From a phage: a stretch of 43,346 nt of DNA. The stretch lies in assembly GCA_031490115.1 (NCBI GenBank), contig GCA_031490115.1_4355.1. One strand, written 5' to 3'. The notes under the pieces are model-generated. The model made no database searches. It saw nothing but the letters and a program-made list of their open reading frames with translations, and had not been told where the DNA came from. Below are positions 98-43,324 of this stretch, one piece after another. The position numbers and the translations under genes were made by a program. Numbering within the stretch: position 1 is the stretch's first letter; each line of letters starts with the position of its first letter.

Positions 98-586
98 TCA
101 ACCTTTCACCGCGCGCCCGATAGCCTCTGCCTCTTGCCACGGTTTACCGTCGAACAGCGCCAGACGACCGGCGGTACGACGACGCAGTCCAAGTATCGGT
201 TTGCCGTTCTGGTTGATGAACAGCGCCAGCTTAGCCCGCAGAGTCGTGACGTCACCAGAACGCAGTGCCTTACCTGTGCCAGTAGTAGCCGCAATCACAC
301 CGGCACCCGCGTTATACACCAGGTCGCACACTGCGTCGAACTGTGCCTGTGTCAATGAATGGTGTGCTGCTGCGTCAACCGCAGCTACGGCCTTAGCCAT
401 ATCACGATTCAGTAACAGGAGTCCTTGTCCCGGGGTGATGGTCTGCCCCGCCTTAACATGCGGGCCATAGCTTCCATACCCAATAGTCAGGTACTTCTCA
501 TTCGGTGTAGCGCGATACGCGGTTCCGCGGAATCCCTCGAACGCGGCAGTGAATTTGATGCCATTATCTGAAATATTTCGAGACAC
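98..586 (-). CDS. endolysin (phage lysozyme, P22 gp19 / T4-lysozyme-like fold)
   Basis: Translation has the lysozyme N-terminal motif EGFRGTAY...TIGYG and the C-terminal ...LGLRRRTAGRLALF typical of P22-type lysozymes. Probable GTG start at 584-586 behind GGAGGA; the longest ORF extends to 637. Confidence 0.8.
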   Translation of the reverse strand: MSRNISDNGIKFTAAFEGFRGTAYRATPNEKYLTIGYGSYGPHVKAGQTITPGQGLLLLNRDMAKAVAAVDAAAHHSLTQAQFDAVCDLVYNAGAGVIAATTGTGKALRSGDVTTLRAKLALFINQNGKPILGLRRRTAGRLALFDGKPWQEAEAIGRAVKG

Positions 587-836
587 GCTTATGTCCTCCG
601 TACGACAGCCACGCCTGACGAATCTGACGCAGCGCAACTAATGTGATTAATGTCTCAGGCAGCGTCGATGACATGCTGCCCTGTAACAGGTGGATACATC
701 CGGCGGCGCAGACAATAGCAGTCAGAATATAAAGCACACGCCCGAACAGGCCATCATCTACGCTGGGGTGGTATACGTTAAACAGCGATGTGCTCCCGAT
801 TGCGAGCATACCACCAAACCAGAATAACTCATTCAT
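564..836 (-). CDS. small two-TM membrane protein (second holin or antiholin candidate)
   Basis: ATG at 834-836 overlaps the stop of the upstream holin; two hydrophobic helices; sits between holin and endolysin. Confidence 0.45.
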   Translation of the reverse strand: MNELFWFGGMLAIGSTSLFNVYHPSVDDGLFGRVLYILTAIVCAAGCIHLLQGSMSSTLPETLITLVALRQIRQAWLSYGGHKRVSKYFR

Positions 837-1137
837 TACCACCTCCGCGACGTGCGATGTATTCTCCGGCGACAATGCCAGAGAGACGGGAATAAATTGG
901 CATCCAGAGAATAGCAATGATGAATCCAAGGCCCGCTATTTCGCGTTCACCTGCGATACCGAACCATTGAGCGGCGAGAGGCGCACCGAATACGGCGCAC
1001 GCAAAGCCAGTGGCGAAAAAACAGAGAGCATCGACAGGGCCGGTAATAGCGGCTTTGTGTTGCCGTAAGCATATTACCCCACCAGCTAATGCGGCAGCGA
1101 GAAGCCACCCCGTCACAGTTTCAGTAAATTTATCCAA
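829..1137 (-). CDS. holin-like membrane protein
   Basis: 102 aa with three predicted hydrophobic segments and a charged C-terminus, immediately upstream of the endolysin. Confidence 0.55.
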   Translation of the reverse strand: MDKFTETVTGWLLAAALAGGVICLRQHKAAITGPVDALCFFATGFACAVFGAPLAAQWFGIAGEREIAGLGFIIAILWMPIYSRLSGIVAGEYIARRGGGNE

Positions 1138-1506: not shown

Positions 1507-1694
1507 CACTCCACCCCCTCCACATGTGTAACTGACCCACAGTTCGCGCACTCAACGTAATCAGGAAACTGGTCCTTGTATTTCTGTAACTCGGCTTCAA
1601 GTTTCGCGTAATCTTCGTAAAGCACTAACACGCCCTCAACATCAGGAGTAAACCCGAATATCTGGTCGTAGGTATATCTCTGCACCATAATCAC
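1506..1694 (-). CDS. hypothetical small protein with C-terminal CxxC
   Basis: 62-aa ORF packed head to tail with its neighbours. Confidence 0.4.
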   Translation of the reverse strand: MIMVQRYTYDQIFGFTPDVEGVLVLYEDYAKLEAELQKYKDQFPDYVECANCGSVTHVEGVE

Positions 1695-1894
1695 TTCTCC
1701 TGTTTACCAAGTCGCTTAGGTGAGCAGATAGCGCGTACCTCTGAATCGTTGGGCTTGTCACCCTGAAACAGAAAGTGCGCGTTCTCTGCGGCGCGTGCCG
1801 CTGACTGGCACGCCTCCATTGAGTAAAACGTTTCTGACGCCGCTAGTTGCATCTGGCCCGCCGACAATACCCAGATAAATAAGATGCTGGTCAT
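1691..1894 (-). CDS. hypothetical small protein with N-terminal signal-like hydrophobic segment
   Basis: 67 aa; hydrophobic N-terminus MTSILFIWVLSAGQMQLAAS; 4-nt overlap with the upstream gene. Confidence 0.4.
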   Translation of the reverse strand: MTSILFIWVLSAGQMQLAASETFYSMEACQSAARAAENAHFLFQGDKPNDSEVRAICSPKRLGKQEK

Positions 1895-3283: not shown

Positions 3284-3474
3284 TTCACCCCTTTGAATTT
3301 AAAATTGTTGCCGATGAGTGTTAAATTATCTCTGAAAGCGTAACCATGTTTCTTTCGTACAAGACCCCATACGTCTACAGCGGTACTATATTCATCCTCA
3401 TTCTGGGTAACTATTACGTACTGTCCGCCGCGTTTTGTTTTAACCAACTGACCCTTCTTAAACATAACCCTCAC
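3280..3474 (-). CDS. hypothetical small protein
   Basis: 64-aa ORF, first gene after the promoter at 3501-3529. Confidence 0.45.
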   Translation of the reverse strand: MRVMFKKGQLVKTKRGGQYVIVTQNEDEYSTAVDVWGLVRKKHGYAFRDNLTLIGNNFKFKGVK

Positions 3475-3500
3475 TCCTTATGTCTCGTTTCGATAAGTGA

Positions 3501-3529
3501 ATAGTATCCTATTATGTTGGGGTGTGCAA
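3501..3529 (-). promoter_or_regulatory. sigma70-like promoter (TTGCAC-N17-TACTAT), leftward
   Basis: -35 is the reverse complement of 3524-3529, -10 the reverse complement of 3501-3506, 17-nt spacer. Confidence 0.6.
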
Positions 3530-3588
3530 GATAATAGTTACGTTGCCGTTGTGATTCTTTCGTTTCTTAAAAGAGTACGCAACGCAGC

Positions 3589-3608
3589 GGGTGGGCTTTA
3601 GCCCACCC
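3589..3608 (-). promoter_or_regulatory. strong GC hairpin in the leader of the left operon
   Basis: GGGTGGGC-ttta-GCCCACCC, nested inside a longer AGAGTAC...GTACTCT dyad; about 200 nt downstream (leftward) of the copy-A promoter. Confidence 0.45.
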
Positions 3609-3691
3609 CAGCGGAGTGAAGTACTCTCTACCTTGCTTACGGCAACTATAGAAACTTTTAATTATCAGTGACTTGGATATTTAGGCGGGAT

Positions 3692-3838
3692 TAACAATAG
3701 ACTTTGACCCTTCCGAAAGCGTCAGCGGAACTACACTCAAGTGCCTAATGGCACGCGTTGCGTTCCCTGCCGCTCCGCGGTCGCTTGCGATATCTCACAA
3801 GCTCAGTGAAGCTTAGCATATTTTCAAGTAAAAGTCAA
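3692..3838 (-). repeat. copy A of a duplicated promoter-plus-leader element
   Basis: About 80 percent identical to 34856-34998. Minus-strand -35 TTGACT (3833-3838), 17-nt spacer, TGn-TAAGCT -10 (3810-3815), then a conserved leader with hairpin GTGCC-taat-GGCAC (3741-3754). Confidence 0.6.
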
Positions 3839-3885
3839 TACCAGTAGCATCTTTTGTATTTTAGTAACTTTGCGTGGTGTTTTGG

Positions 3886-3914
3886 TTGCTTTTACAAAGT
3901 TACCGCCTTATACT
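3886..3914 (+). promoter_or_regulatory. candidate sigma70-like early promoter, rightward
   Basis: TTGCTT-N17-TATACT, 30 nt upstream of the first plus-strand gene. Confidence 0.4.
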
Positions 3915-3943
3915 TCGATACATATTACACAGGAGAGCGCGAG

Positions 3944-4114
3944 ATGACTATCAATGAAGTTGCAGAATTAATCGGCGTCACCCGCCAGACGATCAATAAC
4001 TGGATTAAGAGTGGAAAGTTTCCTGATTGCAGCGTTAAAGTAATGGGGCGCCGTTTACCAGGAACATTTGACCGTAATAAAGTTGAAGCATGGATTAAGG
4101 AGAACGTGAAATGA
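3944..4114 (+). CDS. HTH DNA-binding protein (AlpA/Xis-like)
   Basis: MTINEVAELIGVTRQTINNWIKSGKFP... matches the AlpA/excisionase-type HTH pattern; AGGAGAG 8 nt upstream. Confidence 0.6.
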   Translation: MTINEVAELIGVTRQTINNWIKSGKFPDCSVKVMGRRLPGTFDRNKVEAWIKENVK

Positions 4115-20789: not shown

Positions 20790-21145
20790 AATTCAATCTC
20801 CGTGTACGTGTCTCCGAGGTCCACCAGCCTGTCAAGCCGTACCTGACGGGATGCAAGCTCGCAATGACTCACCATCCCGTCGAAGTAAACTCCAGCGTGC
20901 CACACGATACGACCCCCGCGGCGATAACCCATAAGCACCGCGCAGAAGTTTTCAGGCTTATCAATTTTTGTAAGCCCCTTCGTGTCACGGTGGCCTTCGT
21001 CAAACGCTTCGTTAATTGCCGTTGGGCTTGTAACGTCGAACGCAGGGGTTTCTAACCCGGCATCCGCGCGGACAATGCGCACGTGATGCCAGCAATTGCG
21101 CTTGCGAAAGTCGTAAGGTATGCCCGTGTAGTCGTTAATATTCAT
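20780..21145 (-). CDS. tail assembly protein, NlpC/P60-like (lambda gpK-like C-terminal domain)
   Basis: 121 aa with Cys...His...His spacing (NCWHH...WHAG...SHC). Confidence 0.5.
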   Translation of the reverse strand: MNINDYTGIPYDFRKRNCWHHVRIVRADAGLETPAFDVTSPTAINEAFDEGHRDTKGLTKIDKPENFCAVLMGYRRGGRIVWHAGVYFDGMVSHCELASRQVRLDRLVDLGDTYTEIEFWR

Positions 21146-32413: not shown

Positions 32414-33463
32414 TTAAGCACCGACACCAGTTACCAGGAAGGCAATCGGTACGTGCTTACGTTCAACCACACGGTTCCAGTTGGAGGCGTTTGCCAGGTC
32501 CTGCCAGGAAGCAGAGCGGGCTACAGTCTCGGTGCCGTTGCCAGTGATTACCGCGCTGGTGAAGCTGTAACCAAACGGATGCAGCAACCAGGTCTTACGG
32601 GTCCACAGAGTTTCGACACCACCACCGTTACCGCGAGACGCTTCGCGCTCGTATTCCAGCGGGTTGGACGGAGAACCTTCACCGTAACCGATAGCGCCGT
32701 TGCCGAAGATGATGGAGATGAACTTATGGCGGCCGCTAGTACCGACTACAGTCATGCTGTCGTCAACAATCACGCGGTAGCCCTGGTAGGTGGCGAACAT
32801 GGTGTTGTTGTCGGCGTCACGGATAAAGTCGATAAGCTGCTGCTTACGGGCCTGCGCATAAACGAAGCTGTGCATCGCAATAGCACCAAGCACTTCACCA
32901 CCGTTACCCATCAGCGCATCACCCATAGTCTGGGTAGCGTCGATGAACGCACCGGAGTCGAAGCCCAGAGTAGTGGACACGTCGATTACCATGTCATTCC
33001 GCTCGTGGTAAGCATCGGTAGCGGCTACGTTGTCGTTGTACAGACCGAGCGCGGTAGCAATCAGACGGCGTTGCACCTGGCGCTGCCAGAAGTTATCCAG
33101 ACGGGACGCTACAGATTGCAGCGGGTTCTGGCTGGTCAGTTCTACAGTCAGGTCCGCCTGGCCAAAACCTTCGTTCAGGTACGCAACGCGCGCCATCATC
33201 TCGCCGGTCTGCACGTTACGCGGGGTGGCGATGTCCTGGTATACGTCGTTCGAGTAGTTCGGCTCGATAGATGTATCAATCGCTTTCCAGAAAGGAATAT
33301 TAGCGACGTTGGACGGGCCGCGGGCAATCTCGGCGGCGTATGGGGTCGGGGTGAGAATACCAGACTGGAAGAACGCGGTTTTTTCTACCGGGTCCTCGGT
33401 CATATAAGACGCCAGGACCGGGATGTTGCCAGTTACGATATCGCCGATAGTGGTAATTGCCAT
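32414..33463 (-). CDS. major capsid protein
   Basis: 349 aa, directly downstream of the scaffold gene; size and position typical. Confidence 0.7.
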   Translation of the reverse strand: MAITTIGDIVTGNIPVLASYMTEDPVEKTAFFQSGILTPTPYAAEIARGPSNVANIPFWKAIDTSIEPNYSNDVYQDIATPRNVQTGEMMARVAYLNEGFGQADLTVELTSQNPLQSVASRLDNFWQRQVQRRLIATALGLYNDNVAATDAYHERNDMVIDVSTTLGFDSGAFIDATQTMGDALMGNGGEVLGAIAMHSFVYAQARKQQLIDFIRDADNNTMFATYQGYRVIVDDSMTVVGTSGRHKFISIIFGNGAIGYGEGSPSNPLEYEREASRGNGGGVETLWTRKTWLLHPFGYSFTSAVITGNGTETVARSASWQDLANASNWNRVVERKHVPIAFLVTGVGA

Positions 33464-33465
33464 TA

Positions 33466-34167
33466 TTATTTCCTCAGGGCTTTAAGTTGCCGTTCAAATT
33501 CGGCAGGGTTCGATTTATACAGGGCTAAACGCTCTGCTTCACTCATGTCTTTAAACGCTGGTGCGGCCCCGCCGCCTTTGCTACCGGAAGCCCCGCCGCC
33601 GGAAGCTGCATTTGCTTTGATCAAATGCGAAAACGCCTTGTGTTCGCGCAGGTATTTGCGGAACTGTTCCGGGTCAGTCGTGATTACGTTACCGTCTGCA
33701 CCAACAAACTTAGTAACCACATCATCACCTTCGAACTCAGTCTTAACGAACGGCGCAAGAATGTCCACTGCTTCTGGGGTAATAAAGTCACCCGCGAAAG
33801 AGCCTAGCACCGCTTTACGTTCGCTGCCGAGGATACGCTCTGCCATTCTGGAGATGCGACCGTCTTTCTCGGCTAACACCGGGTCATACTGGCTACGAAT
33901 CGTCTTTTCGAACTCATCCATCTTACCAGCGGCTTTTAACGCCTCCTGGTGCGCGCGCTGCCGTTCTTCTTCGGCCTCTTTTGCTTTGCGAGCGGCTTCT
34001 TTCTTCTCCGCCAACAATGCTTCCTGATTAGCCTTAAGCCCGGCAACTTCTTTCTCAATCAGCGCCTGAACTTCTTCAGCGGTGAACATTTTCGGCGCGT
34101 CACCGCCACCAGCTTTATCTTCTGCCCCAGCCTCTTCCTGGAACGGATAACGTAAAAAACGATTCAT
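33466..34167 (-). CDS. scaffolding protein
   Basis: Ala/Glu/Lys-rich coiled coil, followed by the capsid gene; start taken at MNRFLRYPF (the ORF extends to 34221). Confidence 0.65.
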   Translation of the reverse strand: MNRFLRYPFQEEAGAEDKAGGGDAPKMFTAEEVQALIEKEVAGLKANQEALLAEKKEAARKAKEAEEERQRAHQEALKAAGKMDEFEKTIRSQYDPVLAEKDGRISRMAERILGSERKAVLGSFAGDFITPEAVDILAPFVKTEFEGDDVVTKFVGADGNVITTDPEQFRKYLREHKAFSHLIKANAASGGGASGSKGGGAAPAFKDMSEAERLALYKSNPAEFERQLKALRK

Positions 34168-34249: not shown

Positions 34250-34513
34250 CTATTCCAGAATATTCCTCACGTAATCCTGCAACATGAACACTTTCAGTCT
34301 CAGTTGCCGTACACATTCTGCGTTCTGAACGTCGATAGCCAAATCCTCGTCGGCGTCGCTACTTGGCAGCGCCAGTTTGCACGGCGGCTGCATCATCGTC
34401 GTATCCGGGGATGGAATTGGCGTTTGCGACTGCGCGGGACTTGAGCTGCACGCGCTCAGGGTCAAAAGTGCACACGCTGCGACCAGGCGTTCTAATGTAC
34501 TTAACGACTTCAC
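34250..34513 (-). CDS. o-spanin (Rz1-like lipoprotein), overlapping the i-spanin gene
   Basis: Lipobox LLTLSAC, Pro-rich mature region with MMQPP (compare lambda Rz1 IMQPPP); in the +1 frame across the 3' end of the Rz-like gene. Confidence 0.55.
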   Translation of the reverse strand: MKSLSTLERLVAACALLTLSACSSSPAQSQTPIPSPDTTMMQPPCKLALPSSDADEDLAIDVQNAECVRQLRLKVFMLQDYVRNILE

Positions 34514-34745
34514 GGGTAATCACCTCTGATTTCGTCTTGCCTTCGTTGTCGGCGGCGGCGGCCTTTGATTCGTCCTGCTGCTGCCGTTGTGTTTTCTTCG
34601 CTAACTCAGCCTGCGCTTTCTGCTGTTGCTGCGAAACGAGATTCGCCCGGCCTTCGCTCCAGCCGCTGCGGTACTGATAAATGCCGTGTGTGTAAGCCAG
34701 GATGATGAAACATGCTCCCGCTACGACAGTTGCTTTAAGATTCAT
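34359..34745 (-). CDS. i-spanin (Rz-like)
   Basis: 128 aa; N-terminal TM helix, Gln-rich coiled coil, embedded lipoprotein ORF. Confidence 0.55.
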   Translation of the reverse strand: MNLKATVVAGACFIILAYTHGIYQYRSGWSEGRANLVSQQQQKAQAELAKKTQRQQQDESKAAAADNEGKTKSEVITREVVKYIRTPGRSVCTFDPERVQLKSRAVANANSIPGYDDDAAAVQTGAAK

Positions 34746-34761
34746 GTTTCCCCTTTCTCGA

Positions 34762-34789
34762 TAAGTAAAGCCCCGCCTTAAAGCGGGGC
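34762..34789 (-). terminator. terminator-like hairpin in the leader of the late operon
   Basis: GCCCCGC-N6-GCGGGGC followed on the minus strand by UUUACUUAU, about 185 nt downstream of the copy-B promoter and 25 nt upstream of the Rz start. Confidence 0.45.
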
Positions 34790-34855: not shown

Positions 34856-34998
34856 CAATAGAGCACGGCCCTTCAGAACGCGTCAGCGTAACTACACTCA
34901 GGACTTACGTCCCGCTCCGTTACCTGCCCGCGCCGCGGTCGTTTGTTCATACTTCACAAGCTCAGGTGGAGCTTAGCACATTTTTAGTGAAAAGTCAA
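34856..34998 (-). repeat. copy B of the duplicated promoter-plus-leader element
   Basis: Minus-strand -35 TTGACT (34993-34998), 17-nt spacer, TGn-TAAGCT (34970-34975); conserved leader; hairpin GGAC-ttac-GTCC (34901-34912) replaces copy A's GTGCC-taat-GGCAC. Confidence 0.6.
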
Positions 34999-35064
34999 CT
35001 ATTCGAATAGTTTATTCCAACATTTACAATTCGGTGGAATAACTGGAATACGTAAATAAATAGT

Positions 35065-35218: not shown

Positions 35219-35563
35219 ATGAAATATATTAAATTAGCAGTAGCGGGTGTTGTAGCCGTCTGTTTGAGTGGTTGCGTAAGGTCGTTGCCAGACCCAGCTT
35301 TACAGGTTTATCAGGCGGGGGATACAACGGCAACATGTAATCAGTTACTATCGAGAATCGCCACGACAAAACAAGCTCAAGCCAACGCTACGCACCGTGT
35401 TAATAAGCAAATAGGTACTAACGTTGTACTCGGTGTTACAGGCGCATTCCTGATTGTTCCGCTGTTCTTTATGGACACAGGCGCTGGGCCTTCTATGGAC
35501 GAGATGGCAGCCGGTAATCGTCTGTCGCAGTTACAACAAACATACGACGAGAAATGCAAATGA
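35219..35563 (+). CDS. lipoprotein (superinfection-exclusion candidate)
   Basis: Signal peptide with lipobox LSGC, plus a C-proximal hydrophobic segment; own promoter and terminator; opposite strand to the surrounding structural genes. Confidence 0.55.
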   Translation: MKYIKLAVAGVVAVCLSGCVRSLPDPALQVYQAGDTTATCNQLLSRIATTKQAQANATHRVNKQIGTNVVLGVTGAFLIVPLFFMDTGAGPSMDEMAAGNRLSQLQQTYDEKCK

Positions 35564-35635: not shown

Positions 35636-35658
35636 AAAGCCCCGTAAGGGGCCTTTTA
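35636..35658. terminator. bidirectional terminator
   Basis: AGCCCC-gtaa-GGGGC followed by CTTTT. Confidence 0.6.
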
Positions 35659-36120
35659 TCATTCTGGCTTAGTTACCTTCGCCGCTTTACTGACGGCCTC
35701 TACCCCATCGGCATCAGTAACTTTAACGAAGTATTCGCCGACCGCATTAACCGTCAGAGACAGAGCCTCCTCAGGCGCATTCACCACTTCCTTACCGTCT
35801 TTGTACCAGGTCAGAGAATACGGCGCTTTGCCTGCCTTAACCTCGACAGTGATGGTTGCGCTGCCGCCCGCCAGTTCAGCGTCCTGCGGTTGCGCGGAGA
35901 AATACACGTCGCCAGCGTCCGCCAGATACGGAATTTCATAAAGCATACTGGCGGCGGGCAACGCAATACCGGTTTTATCTGCAAACGGCATATCATCTAC
36001 CGGTGTACCGAGTACACTTTCGTCCCCAATAAATACCACGTTCTCGCCAGAGCCAGACACGCGGGCGTACTGGACTACGCGACGAGACGGTACGTCAGTT
36101 ACTTTGAAAAAGCCCATCAT
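35659..36120 (-). CDS. Ig-like domain structural protein
   Basis: 153 aa; YSLTWYKDGKEV...GEYFVKVTDADG is an Ig I-set-like motif shared with the 31701-32042 product. Confidence 0.5.
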   Translation of the reverse strand: MMGFFKVTDVPSRRVVQYARVSGSGENVVFIGDESVLGTPVDDMPFADKTGIALPAASMLYEIPYLADAGDVYFSAQPQDAELAGGSATITVEVKAGKAPYSLTWYKDGKEVVNAPEEALSLTVNAVGEYFVKVTDADGVEAVSKAAKVTKPE

Positions 36121-37163
36121 TATTCCCCTTTCAGATAATCAGCAACACGTTTATCGAGTTCCGCCATCTGCTTAAGCGTGAGCGGATTCCCGAAACCATC
36201 TACAGATATTACGCGAAACTCTTCCGGCGATATACCGCTGTTACGGAAAATCTTACCTCGCACCGGGCCGAGCGCCTGGTCCTGAAACCACGCCGGTTGT
36301 TGTTTCAGGAACTCGTAATAGGTGGTGTCTGCGCTTACCTGAGTACCGCCGTCCGCACCCTTAGCCGCACGTTTTGCGCCTTTATCGAGGAAGTCGAACT
36401 CGGAACTGATTACCGGAGCCGTGCACGACCGGCAGTTCGGATGGGCTGGTGGCATCGGACCTTTACCGATTTCCCACGTCATTCCGTCTCTGGTCCTGCA
36501 AGTCGTGCTGGTACGGCTGTCCAGCGTCGACACCCACTCGTATTTCTCGATGATGTCGTCGTTCTGGCGGTACGTCTCGTTACGTGCTTCGTTGGACACG
36601 TGGGACAGCGCAGTACGGATTACTGTAGCCGCGTATTTCTCCGATACGTCAGCCAGCCCGCCTTTACCGACTACTTCCGTAACAATCTGCCGTGTTGTCT
36701 TACCCTGAACAAAGCCCATCTTAACGCCGGTTACAAGACGTGCTACTTCCGTTTCACCCCAGCCCGACATCAGCTTGGTGAAATCAACGGGCTTGTCGCT
36801 CAATGATAATGGTTGAAACTCGGCAGCGGCCCATACCTGTTCTGCTGTAGGCGTAACAAATTCCGCGTCTACGTTGGCGGTCAGTGTCTTTACGTTCCAC
36901 TCAGCCTCATACGCCGCCAGTTCCTTAAGGTCTTCTGTCAGCTTTGTCTGCCAGTCGCCCGTAAGCCCCACCAGTGCTTCTTCAAGGTCGCGTAACAATT
37001 TATTCAGTCGGGCAGTGCTTCGCCCGTCGTCACCGAATAACAGCACCTGCCGTTTTATTTCGTCCCGCATCTCCTGAATGAACGGTGCTAGGTCTTTCAC
37101 TTCACCAGATGCGGTGCGTTGCAGCCAAATCTGGTGGCTGATTAGTGATGTCAGTAAGCTCAT
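36120..37163 (-). CDS. head morphogenesis / minor head protein (Mu gpF / SPP1 gp7 family)
   Basis: LDSRTSTTCRTRDGMTWE...HPNCRSCTAP is the hallmark motif of this family; lies downstream of portal. Confidence 0.75.
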   Translation of the reverse strand: MSLLTSLISHQIWLQRTASGEVKDLAPFIQEMRDEIKRQVLLFGDDGRSTARLNKLLRDLEEALVGLTGDWQTKLTEDLKELAAYEAEWNVKTLTANVDAEFVTPTAEQVWAAAEFQPLSLSDKPVDFTKLMSGWGETEVARLVTGVKMGFVQGKTTRQIVTEVVGKGGLADVSEKYAATVIRTALSHVSNEARNETYRQNDDIIEKYEWVSTLDSRTSTTCRTRDGMTWEIGKGPMPPAHPNCRSCTAPVISSEFDFLDKGAKRAAKGADGGTQVSADTTYYEFLKQQPAWFQDQALGPVRGKIFRNSGISPEEFRVISVDGFGNPLTLKQMAELDKRVADYLKGE

Positions 37164-37305: not shown

Positions 37306-37959
37306 ATGAAACTGCAAACATTAGAGTTCCCTTATGGAGAAATCACTTTTGACCGTGAAAACTTTATTAACGTAAACGAGCTGGTTGACCAGATGAACCG
37401 TTGGCGTTTAGACAACGGCATGGGGGCCAGAGAGCTTCGCCAGGTCATGGCAACGGATGGCTTCAAGATTTTCAAGGAGGAATGCGAAAAACAACTCGGA
37501 ATCGAGAATGCCATAAGGGCGACGAAAGGCCGAAACGGTCGCACCTTTGCATGTCTCCATCTGGCAGTATATATTGCTGAGCAATACAGCGCCTATTTCC
37601 ATTTCCTCGTTATCGACCGCTTTATCACACAACGGCAGGTAGAACTACGAAACATTGGCGCGGTGAGCTTTGTCGAGCTTAACGCTGCCGTTAGTCGAAT
37701 GATCGAGCGCACGGAGGGAAGAATTGGCCACAGTGGACACTTCATACAGGTGGCTAAAGCGGTAAAGGAATCCGTAGATATCCGCGACGTAACGGGTTTC
37801 GATACATGGGACTCTCAGGATGCGAAGACCAATCAGTTGCGAAGTGACATCCAGAAAGCTCTGGTGACGCTTCTTGACATGGAGGCCGTTAATACATGGG
37901 GTGAACTGAAAGAGGCGATACCTCGGGTTGTGCGTAAATGTGCGGCTAATATACGTTAA
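37306..37959 (+). CDS. KilA-N domain protein
   Basis: 217 aa; N-terminal region (...NGRTFACLHLAVYIAEQYSAYFHFLVIDRF) fits the KilA-N/APSES-type fold; AGGAGAAA upstream. Confidence 0.55.
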   Translation: MKLQTLEFPYGEITFDRENFINVNELVDQMNRWRLDNGMGARELRQVMATDGFKIFKEECEKQLGIENAIRATKGRNGRTFACLHLAVYIAEQYSAYFHFLVIDRFITQRQVELRNIGAVSFVELNAAVSRMIERTEGRIGHSGHFIQVAKAVKESVDIRDVTGFDTWDSQDAKTNQLRSDIQKALVTLLDMEAVNTWGELKEAIPRVVRKCAANIR

Positions 37960-37963
37960 AACT

Positions 37964-37990
37964 AAGGCCCCTAGCGGGGCCTTTCTATTT
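37964..37990. terminator. bidirectional terminator
   Basis: GGCCCC-tagc-GGGGCC followed by TTTCTATTT; overlaps the portal stop. Confidence 0.6.
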
Positions 37991-39458
37991 ACTCCTGTTG
38001 TTGCGCGGACTGCGGAATTTCTCCTGCTACCTGAGCAACCGCACCCAACGGCAGCGGTGCGTCCCTAATAGCGTTCTGAATGTCCTCATCGGTCCAGTCG
38101 GTTACGCCAGCCTTACGCAACGCGGCGTAGTAAGCAGTAGCTGGTAGCAGGCCTGCGTTAATGTCCGTCATCCACTGAGCGCGGTCCTGAGCTGTCATCG
38201 GTTGCAGGAAGAACTCCATGTTCAGCTTGAATTCAATCTCTGTGTCTTCGCGCAACCCTAGCATCGCCGCTACCCAGCGCAATGCATCGGTATACGCCAT
38301 ACTTACGTTACGTGCGATTGTCGCCATAACAGACGTATCCGCGCCACGTTGCAGGCGGGCGGATTCGGCGGTGATTTGCTGCGTCGGGGTGATAAGCTGC
38401 GCACCAATCTGAATGGCCTGATTCTCTTTATCCAGCATATTCTGTTTGGCGAGGTTGTTCTCTCCTGCCTGAACAAGAAATGCATTGCCGCCGTAACCGA
38501 TGTTATGGCCCGAACGCGACCCCATGCGCACGCCGTGAGGGTTGGCTTCTTTCCACTGTTCCATGCTCATGTTCTCGCCAGGGGCGATGAACAGAGTAGG
38601 CTGGCCTACAACGAAGCTGGATTCCTCGTTGTCCGCGCTGTTGCGGAAATGCCCGATATTAAGCTCAGCTAACGGCAGCAAAGGTGCATCATCAATGGTC
38701 ACATCGTTGTTGCTTGCCCCAATGAACGTGAACGGGATTTTGCCCCGTAACTGTTCGCCAAGTTCCGGGAATATTTCGATTACATCATCCTGAGCGCCAC
38801 CTTCGGCATCGAAGCGATAGATTCGCTGGCGGTAGCGCCCGTCAATCAAATCGAGAACGCGGTATTGCTCGCCGAATTTTGTTTCAAACTCAGCGCCTGG
38901 TTCCGAGTATTCCCATGCCTCACGCAATACAACCATCGTCACGCGGTTCACTGAACCGATGCGGGTGAGTCTCCAGTTGATAATGTTCTCCGCGGTATAG
39001 AATGCGATTACCGGGTTTAATAATCCCGCGTTCTGCTCTGCCGCCGTTGCTGCGGCTGTTTCCGGGGCGTCCACCAGCAACCCGCCACGACCCACCGAAT
39101 CAATCTCCATTAGCGTATCCTGTGCGTGCTGCCACAGCCCGACACCAGAACCGTCCGCGTTACGTAACAGGTACTCCAGTTCAGGCGGTATAATCTGCTC
39201 GGGGTCTTTGCGCATGACACTGCCGACCATCCCCACCAGCGTTCTCTTGGTGAAGTTGTAGCAGATAGCGCCGTTCTCGTATTCTTCCTGTCGCTGTGCT
39301 GCGTAGGTCTGGTCAGGCTCGTTCTTCCCGACGTTGCGCAGATAGCGGATAAGGTCGCCTTCAAGAGCGTGGCGTACCTTCTGCCATTTATCGGAGTGAC
39401 GCAGCCATTCCCGGTGTTTTGTCTTAACACCCTGATTCTGACCGTTCATAGTTAACAT
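37989..39458 (-). CDS. portal protein
   Basis: 489 aa, between the large terminase and the head morphogenesis gene. Confidence 0.75.
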   Translation of the reverse strand: MLTMNGQNQGVKTKHREWLRHSDKWQKVRHALEGDLIRYLRNVGKNEPDQTYAAQRQEEYENGAICYNFTKRTLVGMVGSVMRKDPEQIIPPELEYLLRNADGSGVGLWQHAQDTLMEIDSVGRGGLLVDAPETAAATAAEQNAGLLNPVIAFYTAENIINWRLTRIGSVNRVTMVVLREAWEYSEPGAEFETKFGEQYRVLDLIDGRYRQRIYRFDAEGGAQDDVIEIFPELGEQLRGKIPFTFIGASNNDVTIDDAPLLPLAELNIGHFRNSADNEESSFVVGQPTLFIAPGENMSMEQWKEANPHGVRMGSRSGHNIGYGGNAFLVQAGENNLAKQNMLDKENQAIQIGAQLITPTQQITAESARLQRGADTSVMATIARNVSMAYTDALRWVAAMLGLREDTEIEFKLNMEFFLQPMTAQDRAQWMTDINAGLLPATAYYAALRKAGVTDWTDEDIQNAIRDAPLPLGAVAQVAGEIPQSAQQQE

Positions 39459-39470
39459 TGAATAATCCTC

Positions 39471-40742
39471 TTAAAGTGCGAAAGTCACCGGGACGTTAAT
39501 AACTGGTTTGCGAATCGGCATTTCATACGCGATAGGGTATGTGGTTCCATCATTCTGGTGGTCCACACCGCCTGATTTATCCGGTTCGCCGTTCTTGTCG
39601 TAAGCCTGTTGCTCCAGGCATCGTGCGGTAACAGGGCAAGCCTGTTCATTAATCATGACCATACCAGATTCAAGCGCCTTATTCATCGCCGCTACGCGGT
39701 CTTTAACCGGTGGGTTTGTCGATTTAGCGCGCACTTCGAAGCCGGCCTGCTGTAACTGGGCAATATCAGATGTGCTGGCGTTGTTACTTTTACGGTTTTT
39801 ACCGCTTGCGTCGGGGTACATAACGATATAGTGGCCCTTACTTTTCCAGCGCTCTGTTACGGCTCTCACCACATCGGGCGTATCGAACATATCCACCAAC
39901 TCGGCGACTGCATGCCAGACTTTGCCACGTTGCACGTAAACTGTACTAGCCATGTGGCCTACGTTAAAGTCCTGCCCGATATACAGAGTCTCGCCTGGTT
40001 TTATTGTTTCGCGGCTGCTGTTTTTCCCGCGGTCATAGGCGTAATAGACAGTCCCCGCCGTCAGGTTGACGAACTCGCCGTTGATGTAGGCGTCAATCAA
40101 CTGACCTGGGTATGTGTCGCGTAACGACTGCACATAATCTTCTGGCAGGAACGGGTTAGACAGGGTGGACGCCTGAATCATCTCGTAGCCTGGATTCTTT
40201 TTGACTACCCAGCGGTCATGTACGAAACGGAATCCTTCCGGGGTAGTGAACACGGAAACGGTATTAGCAGGTTTCGGTGTAATAGGTTTATATGTCCGCG
40301 GCAACTGGCGGTTACGGGCGATGACTTTGTTCCACGCGTGCTCGGCGTGCTCCATGTTAAGGGTGTCCAACTCGTCGATTTTCGCACGAAACGATTCGTA
40401 GCCAACGATTCGTGCTGGATTATCAAGTGTACGCAGAACAAAATCCCCAAATTGCCCGGAAGACGTATAGATTATGTTGTCAGACTTGTTGTATTTGTAC
40501 CGGATACCCCAGTCGGTGAGCTTTTCTTCCATACGCGGTGCAAGGATGAGGCGCACCAGGTCATAAGTCGGCTCATACATGGCGATGATAGAATCGCTAC
40601 CACCTTCCATGCTGTCGAGTAGTGCAGAGTTGCACATAACTTCGGATTTACCCGTACCGAAGCCAGCTACGAATGCCGGAAACTTGCAATGCATACCGAG
40701 AAACGCGCCTTGCGGCTCCGTTGCCGTGATATTAACGTTCAC
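39471..40742 (-). CDS. terminase large subunit
   Basis: 423 aa; Walker A AGFGTGKS near the N-terminus, nuclease-like acidic motifs C-terminally. Confidence 0.85.
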   Translation of the reverse strand: MNVNITATEPQGAFLGMHCKFPAFVAGFGTGKSEVMCNSALLDSMEGGSDSIIAMYEPTYDLVRLILAPRMEEKLTDWGIRYKYNKSDNIIYTSSGQFGDFVLRTLDNPARIVGYESFRAKIDELDTLNMEHAEHAWNKVIARNRQLPRTYKPITPKPANTVSVFTTPEGFRFVHDRWVVKKNPGYEMIQASTLSNPFLPEDYVQSLRDTYPGQLIDAYINGEFVNLTAGTVYYAYDRGKNSSRETIKPGETLYIGQDFNVGHMASTVYVQRGKVWHAVAELVDMFDTPDVVRAVTERWKSKGHYIVMYPDASGKNRKSNNASTSDIAQLQQAGFEVRAKSTNPPVKDRVAAMNKALESGMVMINEQACPVTARCLEQQAYDKNGEPDKSGGVDHQNDGTTYPIAYEMPIRKPVINVPVTFAL

Positions 40743-41240
40743 CGGACACCACCTTAATTGTTACTTCGCTGATTGGCTCGTCGCGTACTTCTTCGGCGGC
40801 AACAGTTTTATTCAGGCCCAGTTTCGCGGCAGCAAACGTAGCAGAGATGCCCGCGGCCCCCGTTTCAGTGAAGTATGCCTCTTCCAGCGCCTGTGCCGTT
40901 TCATAGGCTTCTGCAAATGCGGGAATCTCGCGCAGCCACAGCTTAATAATCGGGATAGTGGCACCGATGTGTAAGGCGAAGCGAGCCAGTGATGGCGGTT
41001 TATCCTGAATCCGCGGGCGTTCATCACCCTTTGACGTAGGCACAAGCTCCCACGACGTGCGGTCGAAGAACTCGATTAGTGCATCGCAATAGCCCGGGTC
41101 CCACAACGCGGCGGAATTACGGGATGATTGATAAAGGCTCTGTTTACCGCGCGGTCGTTTACGGCGACGGTTTGCGCTAACAGCTTCTTCATGTGCAGCT
41201 TGTACCACCTCTGGCGATGGCTGCTTAAGTTTCAGCTTCA
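40732..41240 (-). CDS. terminase small subunit (putative)
   Basis: About 169 aa from the ATG at 41238-41240 (AAGGGG SD); basic N-terminus; 11-nt overlap with the large terminase start. Confidence 0.5.
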
Positions 41241-41332
41241 TAGAATCCCCTTGCATATGCGTCTGACCATCAGAGCGCACCAGACGCGCCCTACGCGTCT
41301 AAAGGGATTATATAAGGGGATTGGGCGGGATG

Positions 41333-41417: not shown

Positions 41418-41690
41418 TTAGCTACCGCTATAACCCAGGCATTCGGAAAGACTAAAAGTTGCATTAAATTCCTCAAGGTCTATTTTACGAATACATGGTG
41501 AAAGGCAATCAGCGAAAACCAACTCACCAGAATCAATAACGACGAATCGCCAGCCTTTGAATATGTTCTCGGAAATACCCTCCGCAACTTCGCGTACATT
41601 AGGCATGTGTTCTGGGAAATCGTGGAAGTTTCTGGACAAAAATTCAAGGGCCTCACACCGGTTTATGTGGTAGTTATCATATCCAATCAT
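41418..41690 (-). CDS. hypothetical protein
   Basis: 90-aa ORF, last gene of the right-end operon. Confidence 0.4.
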   Translation of the reverse strand: MIGYDNYHINRCEALEFLSRNFHDFPEHMPNVREVAEGISENIFKGWRFVVIDSGELVFADCLSPCIRKIDLEEFNATFSLSECLGYSGS

Positions 41691-43116: not shown

Positions 43117-43262
43117 TCCTTCTCTCCTGCATAGGCTGTTTTCAGTGCCTGCATTGCCGCGGCCCAGAACGCGTCAGCCGGGATATTGCTGCTCAGGTTA
43201 TTGACGGCGATGCGCGCCATCAGTTGTGCGTCTTCGAATGCTTCGGTATCTGTGATTTTCAT
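43113..43262 (-). CDS. hypothetical small protein (49 aa)
   Basis: First gene behind the promoter at 43296-43324; GGAG SD. Confidence 0.35.
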   Translation of the reverse strand: MKITDTEAFEDAQLMARIAVNNLSSNIPADAFWAAAMQALKTAYAGEKE

Positions 43263-43295
43263 TTTCTCTACTCCGTTCTCGTTGTCGATGAAGTA

Positions 43296-43324
43296 AATAT
43301 AATAGGGTCGAGGATAATAGTCAA
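43296..43324 (-). promoter_or_regulatory. sigma70-like promoter (TTGACT-N17-TATATT), leftward
   Basis: -35 is the reverse complement of 43319-43324, -10 the reverse complement of 43296-43301. Confidence 0.55.

Follow-up and report, generated by a model that had tools for sequence, protein, structure and literature searches.

We report that the phage genome analysed here (the window, 43,346 nucleotides) encodes a two-component spanin, consisting of an i-spanin and an o-spanin lipoprotein, an identification backed by its topology signals, by matches to family profiles, by conservation and by a published classification. The pair is real and ordinary, and it sits where phages of this lineage normally carry it. 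Very probably, it is a Kagunavirus member of the Jersey overlapped family that acts according to the lambda/T4 spanin model and whose position was inherited. Judged by similarity, the window is a Kagunavirus (Guernseyvirinae) siphophage: it is approximately 97% identical to the Kagunavirus Golestan across the spanin locus (97.0% over a 2-kb region against Escherichia phage VB_EcoS-Golestan), where the two genes carry spanin annotations, and sequence similar to this 2-kb region is present in 483 phage records.

The overlapped i- and o-spanin genes

The two genes and the putative signals around them are as follows.

34359..34745, minus strand: i-spanin gene, 128 aa (ORF list, phrog_2536, hydropathy)
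34250..34513, minus strand: o-spanin gene, 87 aa, GTG start (ORF list, phrog_1267, phrog_5672, third-position bias)
34521..34526, minus strand: Shine-Dalgarno GAGGTG, 7 nt 5' of the o-spanin GTG and within the i-spanin coding sequence
34750..34755, minus strand: Shine-Dalgarno-like AAGGGG, 4 nt 5' of the i-spanin ATG (read from the sequence)
34770..34789, minus strand: GC-rich hairpin GCCCCGC-TTTAAG-GCGGGGC, followed by CTTTACTTAT (terminator-like match, ~25 nt 5' of the i-spanin start)
34970..34998, minus strand: candidate sigma-70 promoter, TTGACT, 17 nt, TAAGCT, with TGn before the -10 (found by eye)

The i-spanin protein begins MNLKATVVAGACFIILAYTHGIY. A sequence-only reading had described it as an Rz-like ORF with an N-terminal TM helix, and this description holds for the 128-aa ORF. 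A hydrophobic segment occupies approximately residues 3-21 (Kyte-Doolittle 15-residue maximum of 2.17 at residues 3-17), the hydropathy scan revealed no second hydrophobic segment in the protein, and the phrog_2536 profile (“Rz-like spanin”) matches the protein over its full length (E 1.4e-56). The TM segment is followed by a polar, Q/A/K-rich helical stretch; the protein also carries a conserved EVVKYIRTPGRSVCTFDPERV motif and a sole periplasmic cysteine, C92. The AF2 single-sequence model showed a continuous helix at residues 3-64 and an unconfident C-terminal half (mean pLDDT 59.4). Because of this low confidence the model was rejected for a fold search, and it supports only the long N-terminal helix. 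A helical character is thus supported by modelling, and of the “Gln-rich coiled coil” proposed earlier the Q/A/K-rich helical region stands. The coiled-coil part is weak: the best heptad register (residues 28-66) places strong hydrophobics at 18% of a/d positions, versus 53% in lambda Rz, and the pLDDT is 59. The i-spanin is 98.4% identical in amino acid sequence to that of Golestan, 96.1% to that of K1H and 63-78% to those of the sampled Jerseyvirus records.

The o-spanin protein begins MKSLSTLERLVAACALLTLSACSSSP and later contains MMQPPCK. Its signal peptide, MKSLSTLERLVAACALLTLSA, has a basic n-region (K2, R9) followed by a hydrophobic core and ends at the lipobox L-S-A-C, with the predicted lipidated residue at Cys22. 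Residue +2 is Ser23 and not Asp, and because of this serine the lipoprotein is predicted to be sorted to the outer membrane. A proline-rich linker, Cys45, Cys67 and a conserved C-terminal helix region complete the protein. Two “Rz-like spanin” profiles match it, phrog_1267 at residues 10-86 (E 7.9e-20) and phrog_5672 at residues 41-87 (E 2.4e-30), and it is 92% identical to the Golestan o-spanin. The out-of-frame lipoprotein ORF with MMQPP that had been noticed before is therefore borne out, as an 87-aa ORF in the +1 frame with a signal peptide, the lipobox LSAC22 and MMQPPC. The topology and lipobox predictions that had been proposed as a check likewise gave the expected result, with an N-terminal TMD in the i-spanin and the lipobox LSA-C22 in the o-spanin. 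A second lipobox-like match, VAAC14, lies inside the signal peptide; C22 is preferred as the probable lipidation site, because VAAC14 would leave too short an h-region.

The o-spanin frame is +1 relative to the i-spanin frame, the genes overlap by 155 nt, and past the i-spanin stop at 34359 the o-spanin reads on for 109 nt to its own stop at 34250. The pair therefore has the “overlapped” architecture, and the earlier statement that the lipoprotein ORF is contained in the Rz-like ORF was incorrect. In the terms of the generic two-component spanin definition (Summer 2007; Kongari 2018), the i-spanin is small, with a predicted type II topology, a single N-terminal TMD and a largely helical periplasmic domain, and the o-spanin has a signal peptide, a lipobox of the form [LVI][ASTVI][GAS]C and no Asp at +2. 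Periplasmic cysteines for intermolecular disulfides are present in the predicted topology (C92 in the i-spanin, C45 and C67 in the o-spanin), and the genes are adjacent in one of the three accepted arrangements (embedded, overlapped or separated). Linkage to holin and endolysin, which is usual for spanins but does not define them, is lacking here, the endolysin being 8.7 kb away.

Kongari et al. (2018) defined a “Jersey” overlapped family and reported for it a 155-bp overlap and constant o-spanin Cys45 and Cys67; its members include Jersey, SETP3, K1G, K1H, K1ind1-3, wksl3, HK578 and SSL-2009a, among others, and its i-spanins are described as having, between two helices, a linker in which beta strands are predicted. 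The window pair shares the similarity of both proteins, the 155-nt overlap, o-spanin Cys45/Cys67 and the helix, beta-prone linker, helix organisation of the i-spanin (96% amino acid identity to K1H). Nothing material sets it apart, and it is a near-identical member. General family databases added little: Pfam and NCBIfam gave only sub-threshold matches for the spanin ORFs (DUF2514 at 16.3 bits versus a cut-off of 26, P2_Rz1 at 14.7 versus 27, and LppU), and a PDB sequence search with either protein returned nothing at E < 0.4.

The comparison with lambda, which the earlier reading had drawn in the words “as in lambda Rz1”, is valid for function and topology only. The predicted topology is the same: a type II inner-membrane protein is paired with an outer-membrane lipoprotein whose gene uses the +1 frame of the same DNA. 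Both pairs also have periplasmic cysteines and a presumed role in outer-membrane disruption, and both o-spanins are rich in proline and carry an (I/M)MQPP motif. However, BLASTP gave no alignment between the i-spanin and lambda Rz, and between the o-spanin and Rz1 it gave an 11/29 patch over the lipobox and the proline-rich/MQPP stretch (E 0.009 in a single comparison). At E <= 0.1, Pfam returned no Rz or Rz1 family. Homology to lambda Rz/Rz1 was consequently discarded as evidence of family membership, with nothing for Rz and a short proline-rich patch for Rz1. The gene architecture differs as well: lambda Rz1 is wholly embedded in Rz, whereas the window o-spanin extends 109 nt past the i-spanin stop; mature Rz1 has 40 aa, whereas the mature window o-spanin has 66 aa with a conserved C-terminal helical segment; and the lambda pair directly follows S and R, whereas in the window terminase, portal and head genes intervene and the pair lies approximately 8.7 kb further downstream. 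P2 LysB/LysC share the overlapped architecture but belong to a lysis cassette, and the o-spanin scores only 14.7 bits against the NCBIfam P2_Rz1 model (NF038368), which has a cut-off of 27. T4 PseT.3/PseT.2 have the “separated” architecture and belong to another sequence family.

Position on the circular map and conservation in relatives

The window is best read as one arbitrary linearisation of a circularly permuted genome, because its ends are contiguous in another phage (base 43346 and base 2 are adjacent in SHAK7858, at record positions 41571/41570), a search of both window ends found no terminal repeat, and headful packaging is predicted for Kagunavirus Sciku, a relative of the window phage. 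The minus-strand gene order was taken from direct profile searches on the window, which gave the following features.

829..1137, minus strand: holin gene 1, 102 aa (phrog_2359 holin, E 1.8e-28; annotated as holin in relatives)
564..929, minus strand: holin gene 2 (phrog_2508 holin, E 2.8e-33; the Golestan homologue has 273 nt)
98..637, minus strand: endolysin, phage-lysozyme family, longest ORF (PF00959, E 1.7e-25, above the curated cut-off; PHROG endolysin families)
40732..41280, minus strand: small terminase
39471..40742, minus strand: large terminase
37989..39458, minus strand: portal
37306..37959, plus strand: insert between portal and head morphogenesis
36120..37163, minus strand: head morphogenesis
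35659..36120, minus strand: decoration protein
35219..35563, plus strand: insert between decoration gene and spanins
33466..34167, minus strand: scaffold
32414..33463, minus strand: major head protein

The window junction and small ORFs lie between the endolysin and the terminases, and the spanins lie between the decoration protein and the scaffold; the gene order of Golestan is the same. The profile matches place the holins and the endolysin at 98-1137 on the minus strand, in agreement with the earlier reading. The true start of holin gene 2 is probably internal, near 836, as its profile match starts at residue 32, and that of the endolysin is probably internal too; no N-terminal hydrophobic SAR segment is apparent in the endolysin translation.

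On the circular map, the short arc from the endolysin stop to the i-spanin start measures 8,699 nt; the spanins share the strand of the endolysin and lie downstream of it, with terminase, portal and head-morphogenesis genes in between. The earlier figure of about 33 kb between the spanins and the holin-endolysin cassette is an artefact of linearisation that counts the long way round; the true distance is ~8.7 kb (~9 kb). The separation itself is real, but it is far smaller than had been stated, lies on one strand, is conserved in the lineage and had already been reported. Likewise, the spanins precede the scaffold, capsid and tail part, as the claim that they head the structural operon implied, but terminase, portal, head-morphogenesis and decoration genes lie upstream of them on the same strand.

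We compared 12 loci, comprising the window and 11 others from Kagunavirus, Jerseyvirus, Cornellvirus, unclassified Klebsiella/Serratia Guernseyvirinae and Dhillonvirus. The order head morphogenesis (with decoration), variable reverse-strand insert, i-/o-spanin, scaffold and major capsid protein was found in every locus examined: in Kagunavirus Golestan, Bas73 and Sciku, in Jerseyvirus S103, LSPA1, PIZ SAE-01E2 and wksl3, in Cornellvirus VSiA (with a “separated” 8-nt-overlap variant of the spanin genes), and in Klebsiella phage VLCpiS11a, Serratia phage Otaku and Dhillonvirus SSL-2009a. As judged from this gene order, Guernseyvirinae and Dhillonvirus alike keep the spanins in the slot that lies between head morphogenesis/decoration and scaffold. 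The Jersey spanin family, its overlapped architecture and its separation from holin and endolysin are already known from the literature and GenBank annotations. The fBC-Eco01 paper explicitly notes that the spanins lie apart from holin and endolysin, and the Golestan and SeF1 papers give the same split numbering of the lysis genes.

Alternative readings of the pair and its position

An extremely improbable reading is that only the i-spanin-like ORF is a gene, and that the 87-aa +1 ORF is a chance frame or yields just the annotated 47-aa product. Many GenBank records do show only a 41-48-aa ORF from or after MMQPP, or nothing, and PHROG 5672 is a 47-position profile. In all 12 loci, however, the +1 frame is open at the same place and starts with a signal peptide ending in Cys, even though a codon-by-codon alignment with three Jerseyvirus loci gives a signal-peptide identity to the window of only 36-50%; relatives keep the lipoprotein signal, some of them as the LNGC variants that Kongari listed. 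In the 109-nt part read in the o-spanin frame only, differences from Jerseyviruses at the three codon positions number 7, 2 and 14; 8, 2 and 15; and 7, 2 and 17 (the last for PIZ SAE-01E2), a third-position bias which argues that the o-frame is translated and under purifying selection. By such sequence comparison we show that both spanin frames are under purifying selection. Moreover, the window has a strong Shine-Dalgarno, GAGGTG, 7 nt before the GTG; Golestan, Bas73 and Sciku share these letters, GGAGG stands at the same place in S103 and PIZ SAE-01E2, and wksl3 has an ATG at the codon homologous to the GTG. The phrog_1267 profile aligns from residue 10, the long form appears in curated annotations (K1G as cited in the Sciku record, and the manually curated Sciku itself, which annotates the same start and length with an RBS), and a signal-less 47-aa product could not reach the periplasm. 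On these sequence features, the correct o-spanin gene is the 87-aa ORF from the GTG at 34513. It is also highly unlikely that the pair has no lysis function and serves as an envelope-located accessory of head assembly or of superinfection exclusion. Its location between the decoration and scaffold genes, a neighbouring slot that receives accessory “moron” genes, and the fact that the lysis role of the Jersey family is predicted from sequence would fit such an accessory. Yet a type II inner-membrane protein with an overlapping +1 lipoprotein and periplasmic cysteines is the spanin signature, and the pair is universally kept in the lineage whereas the true moron slot beside it varies. In Enterobacter phage Mulvp2, unannotated and overlapped genes encode distant homologues of the two proteins (pairwise E 2e-14 and 7e-13), which keep the VVKY..P.R..C.(F/Y)DPE motif and have the lipobox ISGC; they lie directly downstream of the lysozyme gene, the canonical lysis-cassette position, and this adjacency independently supports a lysis role for the pair. 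Without the pair, moreover, the genome would have no candidate for an outer-membrane disruptor. The genome-wide lipobox scan flagged three ORFs, two of which were taken as credible, the o-spanin and 35219-35563(+), and it revealed no other spanin candidate, including next to the lysis cassette.

The remaining candidates were rejected individually. In the lipobox ORF 20869-21003(-), the Cys comes as late as residue 34, and the would-be signal contains three charged residues. The ORF 35219-35563(+) has the lipobox LSGC19 and one TMD (approximately residues 67-85), with some 48 residues between them and a 30-aa tail after the TMD, and is present in only 11 Kagunavirus records; its geometry, opposite strand and patchy distribution rule it out as a unimolecular spanin of the T1 gp11 type, which needs a periplasmic domain able to bridge the envelope and is encoded with lysis or late genes. 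The ORF 37306-37959(+), an “amidase” by PHROG 6095, was discounted as a lysis gene, having no amidase domain, only a sub-threshold KilA-N match in Pfam and no PDB relative. A check of the small ORFs at 1213-1894, which had been proposed earlier, found no spanin features: 1213-1551, 1506-1694 and 1691-1894 all lack a lipobox and match PHROGs of unknown function, and the one ORF among them with an N-terminal hydrophobic stretch, 1691-1894, encodes 67 aa and has no partner ORF.

The sequence-only reading had further suggested that the separation may affect lysis timing. We consider it unlikely that a place at the front of the scaffold-capsid unit gives the spanins their own expression schedule or dosage and thereby tunes lysis timing or efficiency. 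Several observations could be read in favour of such an effect. The position is conserved across two phage groups, and the 34770-34789 hairpin 5' of the i-spanin, a by-product of this analysis, can still form its stem in Bas73, Sciku, PIZ SAE-01E2 and wksl3, where both sides have changed; it would be a terminator-like element or a leader stem-loop. The candidate promoter at 34970-34998, which adjoins the palindrome CTATTCGAATAG, might serve the spanin-scaffold-capsid unit; it is weak, and the consensus promoter scan did not return it because its -10 hexamer matches the consensus at only 3/6 positions. Conservation extends up to ~35096 among Kagunaviruses whose adjacent inserts differ, and a bidirectional terminator-like hairpin at 35636-35655, after the decoration gene, parts the spanin locus from the upstream head genes. 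These signals make a weak case that the spanins may be the first genes of a scaffold-capsid transcription unit. Against a timing effect, peptidoglycan in the accepted model keeps the spanins inactive until the endolysin acts, with the holin as the timer; the spanins share strand and direction with the lysis cassette and the head genes and are thus probably expressed late in any case; and the stretch from the endolysin to the minus-strand genes that follow it yielded no terminator-like site. T4 also functions with unlinked spanin genes: Kongari et al. (2018) noted that they are not near the T4 holin and endolysin genes, which indicates that linkage is not required for function, although the T4 lysis genes are all dispersed whereas holin and endolysin are still clustered in the window. 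Inheritance explains the conserved position equally well. There is similarly little likelihood that the placement is an adaptive form of regulation, in which a weak promoter and the covarying leader hairpin would couple spanin dosage to capsid-gene expression or attenuate it; if this were true, outer-membrane lysis competence would be tied to morphogenesis and not to the holin-endolysin cassette.

A model for lysis and the meaning of the locus

For the two-component Jersey spanin that we favour, we infer the membrane topology, the lysis role, the formation of a complex and late transcription together with the scaffold and capsid genes. The N-terminal TM segment would hold the i-spanin in the inner membrane and leave the C-terminus in the periplasm. 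The o-spanin would be translated from the internal +1-frame GTG, exported, lipidated at Cys22, cleaved by signal peptidase II and placed in the outer membrane. The two proteins would bind via their C-terminal periplasmic parts to form a complex that spans the periplasm, probably stabilised by disulfides (C92 of the i-spanin; C45 and C67 of the o-spanin), and such complexes would build up harmlessly during late expression. Once the holin triggers and the endolysin removes the peptidoglycan, the freed complexes would fuse or disrupt the inner and outer membranes. This follows the model of Kongari et al. (2018), in which the spanin complexes are inert within the peptidoglycan meshwork and become active only after endolysin has removed it, and in which the holin sets the lysis time. 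The literature that we searched contained no experiments on any Jersey-family spanin.

The position of the spanin genes is not expected to alter lysis timing, because the holin is the clock, the wall restrains the spanins and the genes lie on the same late-transcribed strand. We regard the position as an inherited feature of the lineage, from which no particular functional consequence is expected.

Taken together, the pair itself adds little for discovery, and the locus is an example of how distances read off a linearised, circularly permuted phage genome can mislead. Its practical value lies in annotation quality, as the o-spanin start is widely mis-annotated: most of the public Guernseyvirinae records inspected give the o-spanin as a 41-48-aa fragment without the lipoprotein signal or omit it, one record has the i- and o-spanin labels swapped, and PHROG 5672 was built on the truncated form.

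Region upstream of the spanin genes

The stretch on the 5' side of the i-spanin gene (34359-34745, minus strand) contains the following features:

34770-34789, minus strand: conserved hairpin, about 25 nt 5' of the i-spanin ATG and flanked by GATAAG/CTTATC pairing
34970-34998, minus strand: candidate promoter TTGACT-17-TAAGCT, upstream of the small ORF 34873-34950 (minus strand)
34999-35010: perfect palindrome CTATTCGAATAG, adjoining the candidate promoter
35219-35563, plus strand (divergent): 114-aa ORF with a lipoprotein signal (LSG|C19), an internal TM segment at about residues 67-85 and a 30-aa tail

Across Kagunavirus and Jerseyvirus, the hairpin stem carries compensatory changes, with the variants CCCCGC/GCGGGG, CCCTGC/GCAGGG, CCCAGC/GCTGGG, GCCCGGC/GCCGGGC and GCCCGAC/GTCGGGC. 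Over the 90 nt preceding the i-spanin ATG, the window matches Jerseyvirus S103 at every position and LSPA1 at all but two, despite i-spanin identity of only 74-78% to these two phages. The hairpin may act as a terminator or attenuator, or it may be a leader element that stabilises the mRNA. Further upstream, the palindrome may serve as an operator. The small ORF that follows the candidate promoter encodes 25 aa in the window; its counterparts in Sciku and Bas73 encode 36 aa.

The divergent ORF belongs to PHROG 13472 (unknown function) and was found in only 11 Kagunavirus records; Aeromonas phages have distant relatives of it (28-31% identity). The ORF sits in a variable "moron" slot, where S103 carries a methyltransferase and LSPA1 an endonuclease VII. 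Its product may be a superinfection-exclusion lipoprotein.

Spanin genes in public records

In public records, as seen at loci L001, L002 and L006-L009 of the related phages compared, the o-spanin (34250-34513, minus strand, in the window) is mostly absent or given as a fragment of 41-48 aa that has neither signal peptide nor lipobox, its start lying at MMQPP or beyond it. PHROG 5672, a profile of 47 positions, was built from this truncated form. The full 87-aa gene appears only in curated records such as that of Sciku; the records of wksl3, VLCpiS11a and Otaku omit the o-spanin altogether, and in the PIZ SAE-01E2 record the i-spanin is labelled as the o-spanin and vice versa. Distant homologues of the window's pair, overlapped and with an ISGC lipobox, lie at about 3450-3960 in Enterobacter phage Mulvp2 (OR508996.1, locus L014), directly 3' of a lysozyme-like gene, where the record has no annotation.

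Surroundings of the lysis cassette

1691-1894, minus strand: 67-aa ORF with an N-terminal hydrophobic, signal-like segment, MTSILFIWVLSAGQMQLAAS
101-73, minus strand: good sigma-70-like promoter match, TTGACA-17-GATACT, just 3' of the endolysin gene
43324-43296, minus strand: good sigma-70-like promoter match, TTGACT-17-TATATT, also just 3' of the endolysin gene

The sequence-only reading had raised the question of spanin features near 1213-1894. The 67-aa ORF, a member of PHROG 3766 (unknown function), lies about 550 nt 5' of the holin genes, from which ORFs 1506-1694 and 1213-1551 separate it; it lacks a lipobox and does not qualify as a candidate spanin. The promoter matches 3' of the endolysin gene fall within 1-101 and 43261-43324 (minus strand) of the window, and the interval from the lysis cassette to the small genes and terminase downstream of it showed no terminator-like site.

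A gene labelled as an amidase

37306-37959, plus strand: reverse-strand gene of 217 aa, between the portal and head-morphogenesis genes

This gene matches PHROG 6095 (E 9e-121), which is labelled "amidase" in the lysis category. Pfam showed no amidase domain, only a KilA-N match below threshold (20.4 bits vs 23.8), and no PDB relative was found; therefore, the label looks unreliable. Nearly all records with the gene (335 of 342) are Salmonella Jerseyviruses, and just three are Escherichia phages, among them EcoPhCCP1 (99.5% identity to the window's gene). This distribution suggests that the gene has been exchanged between the genera.
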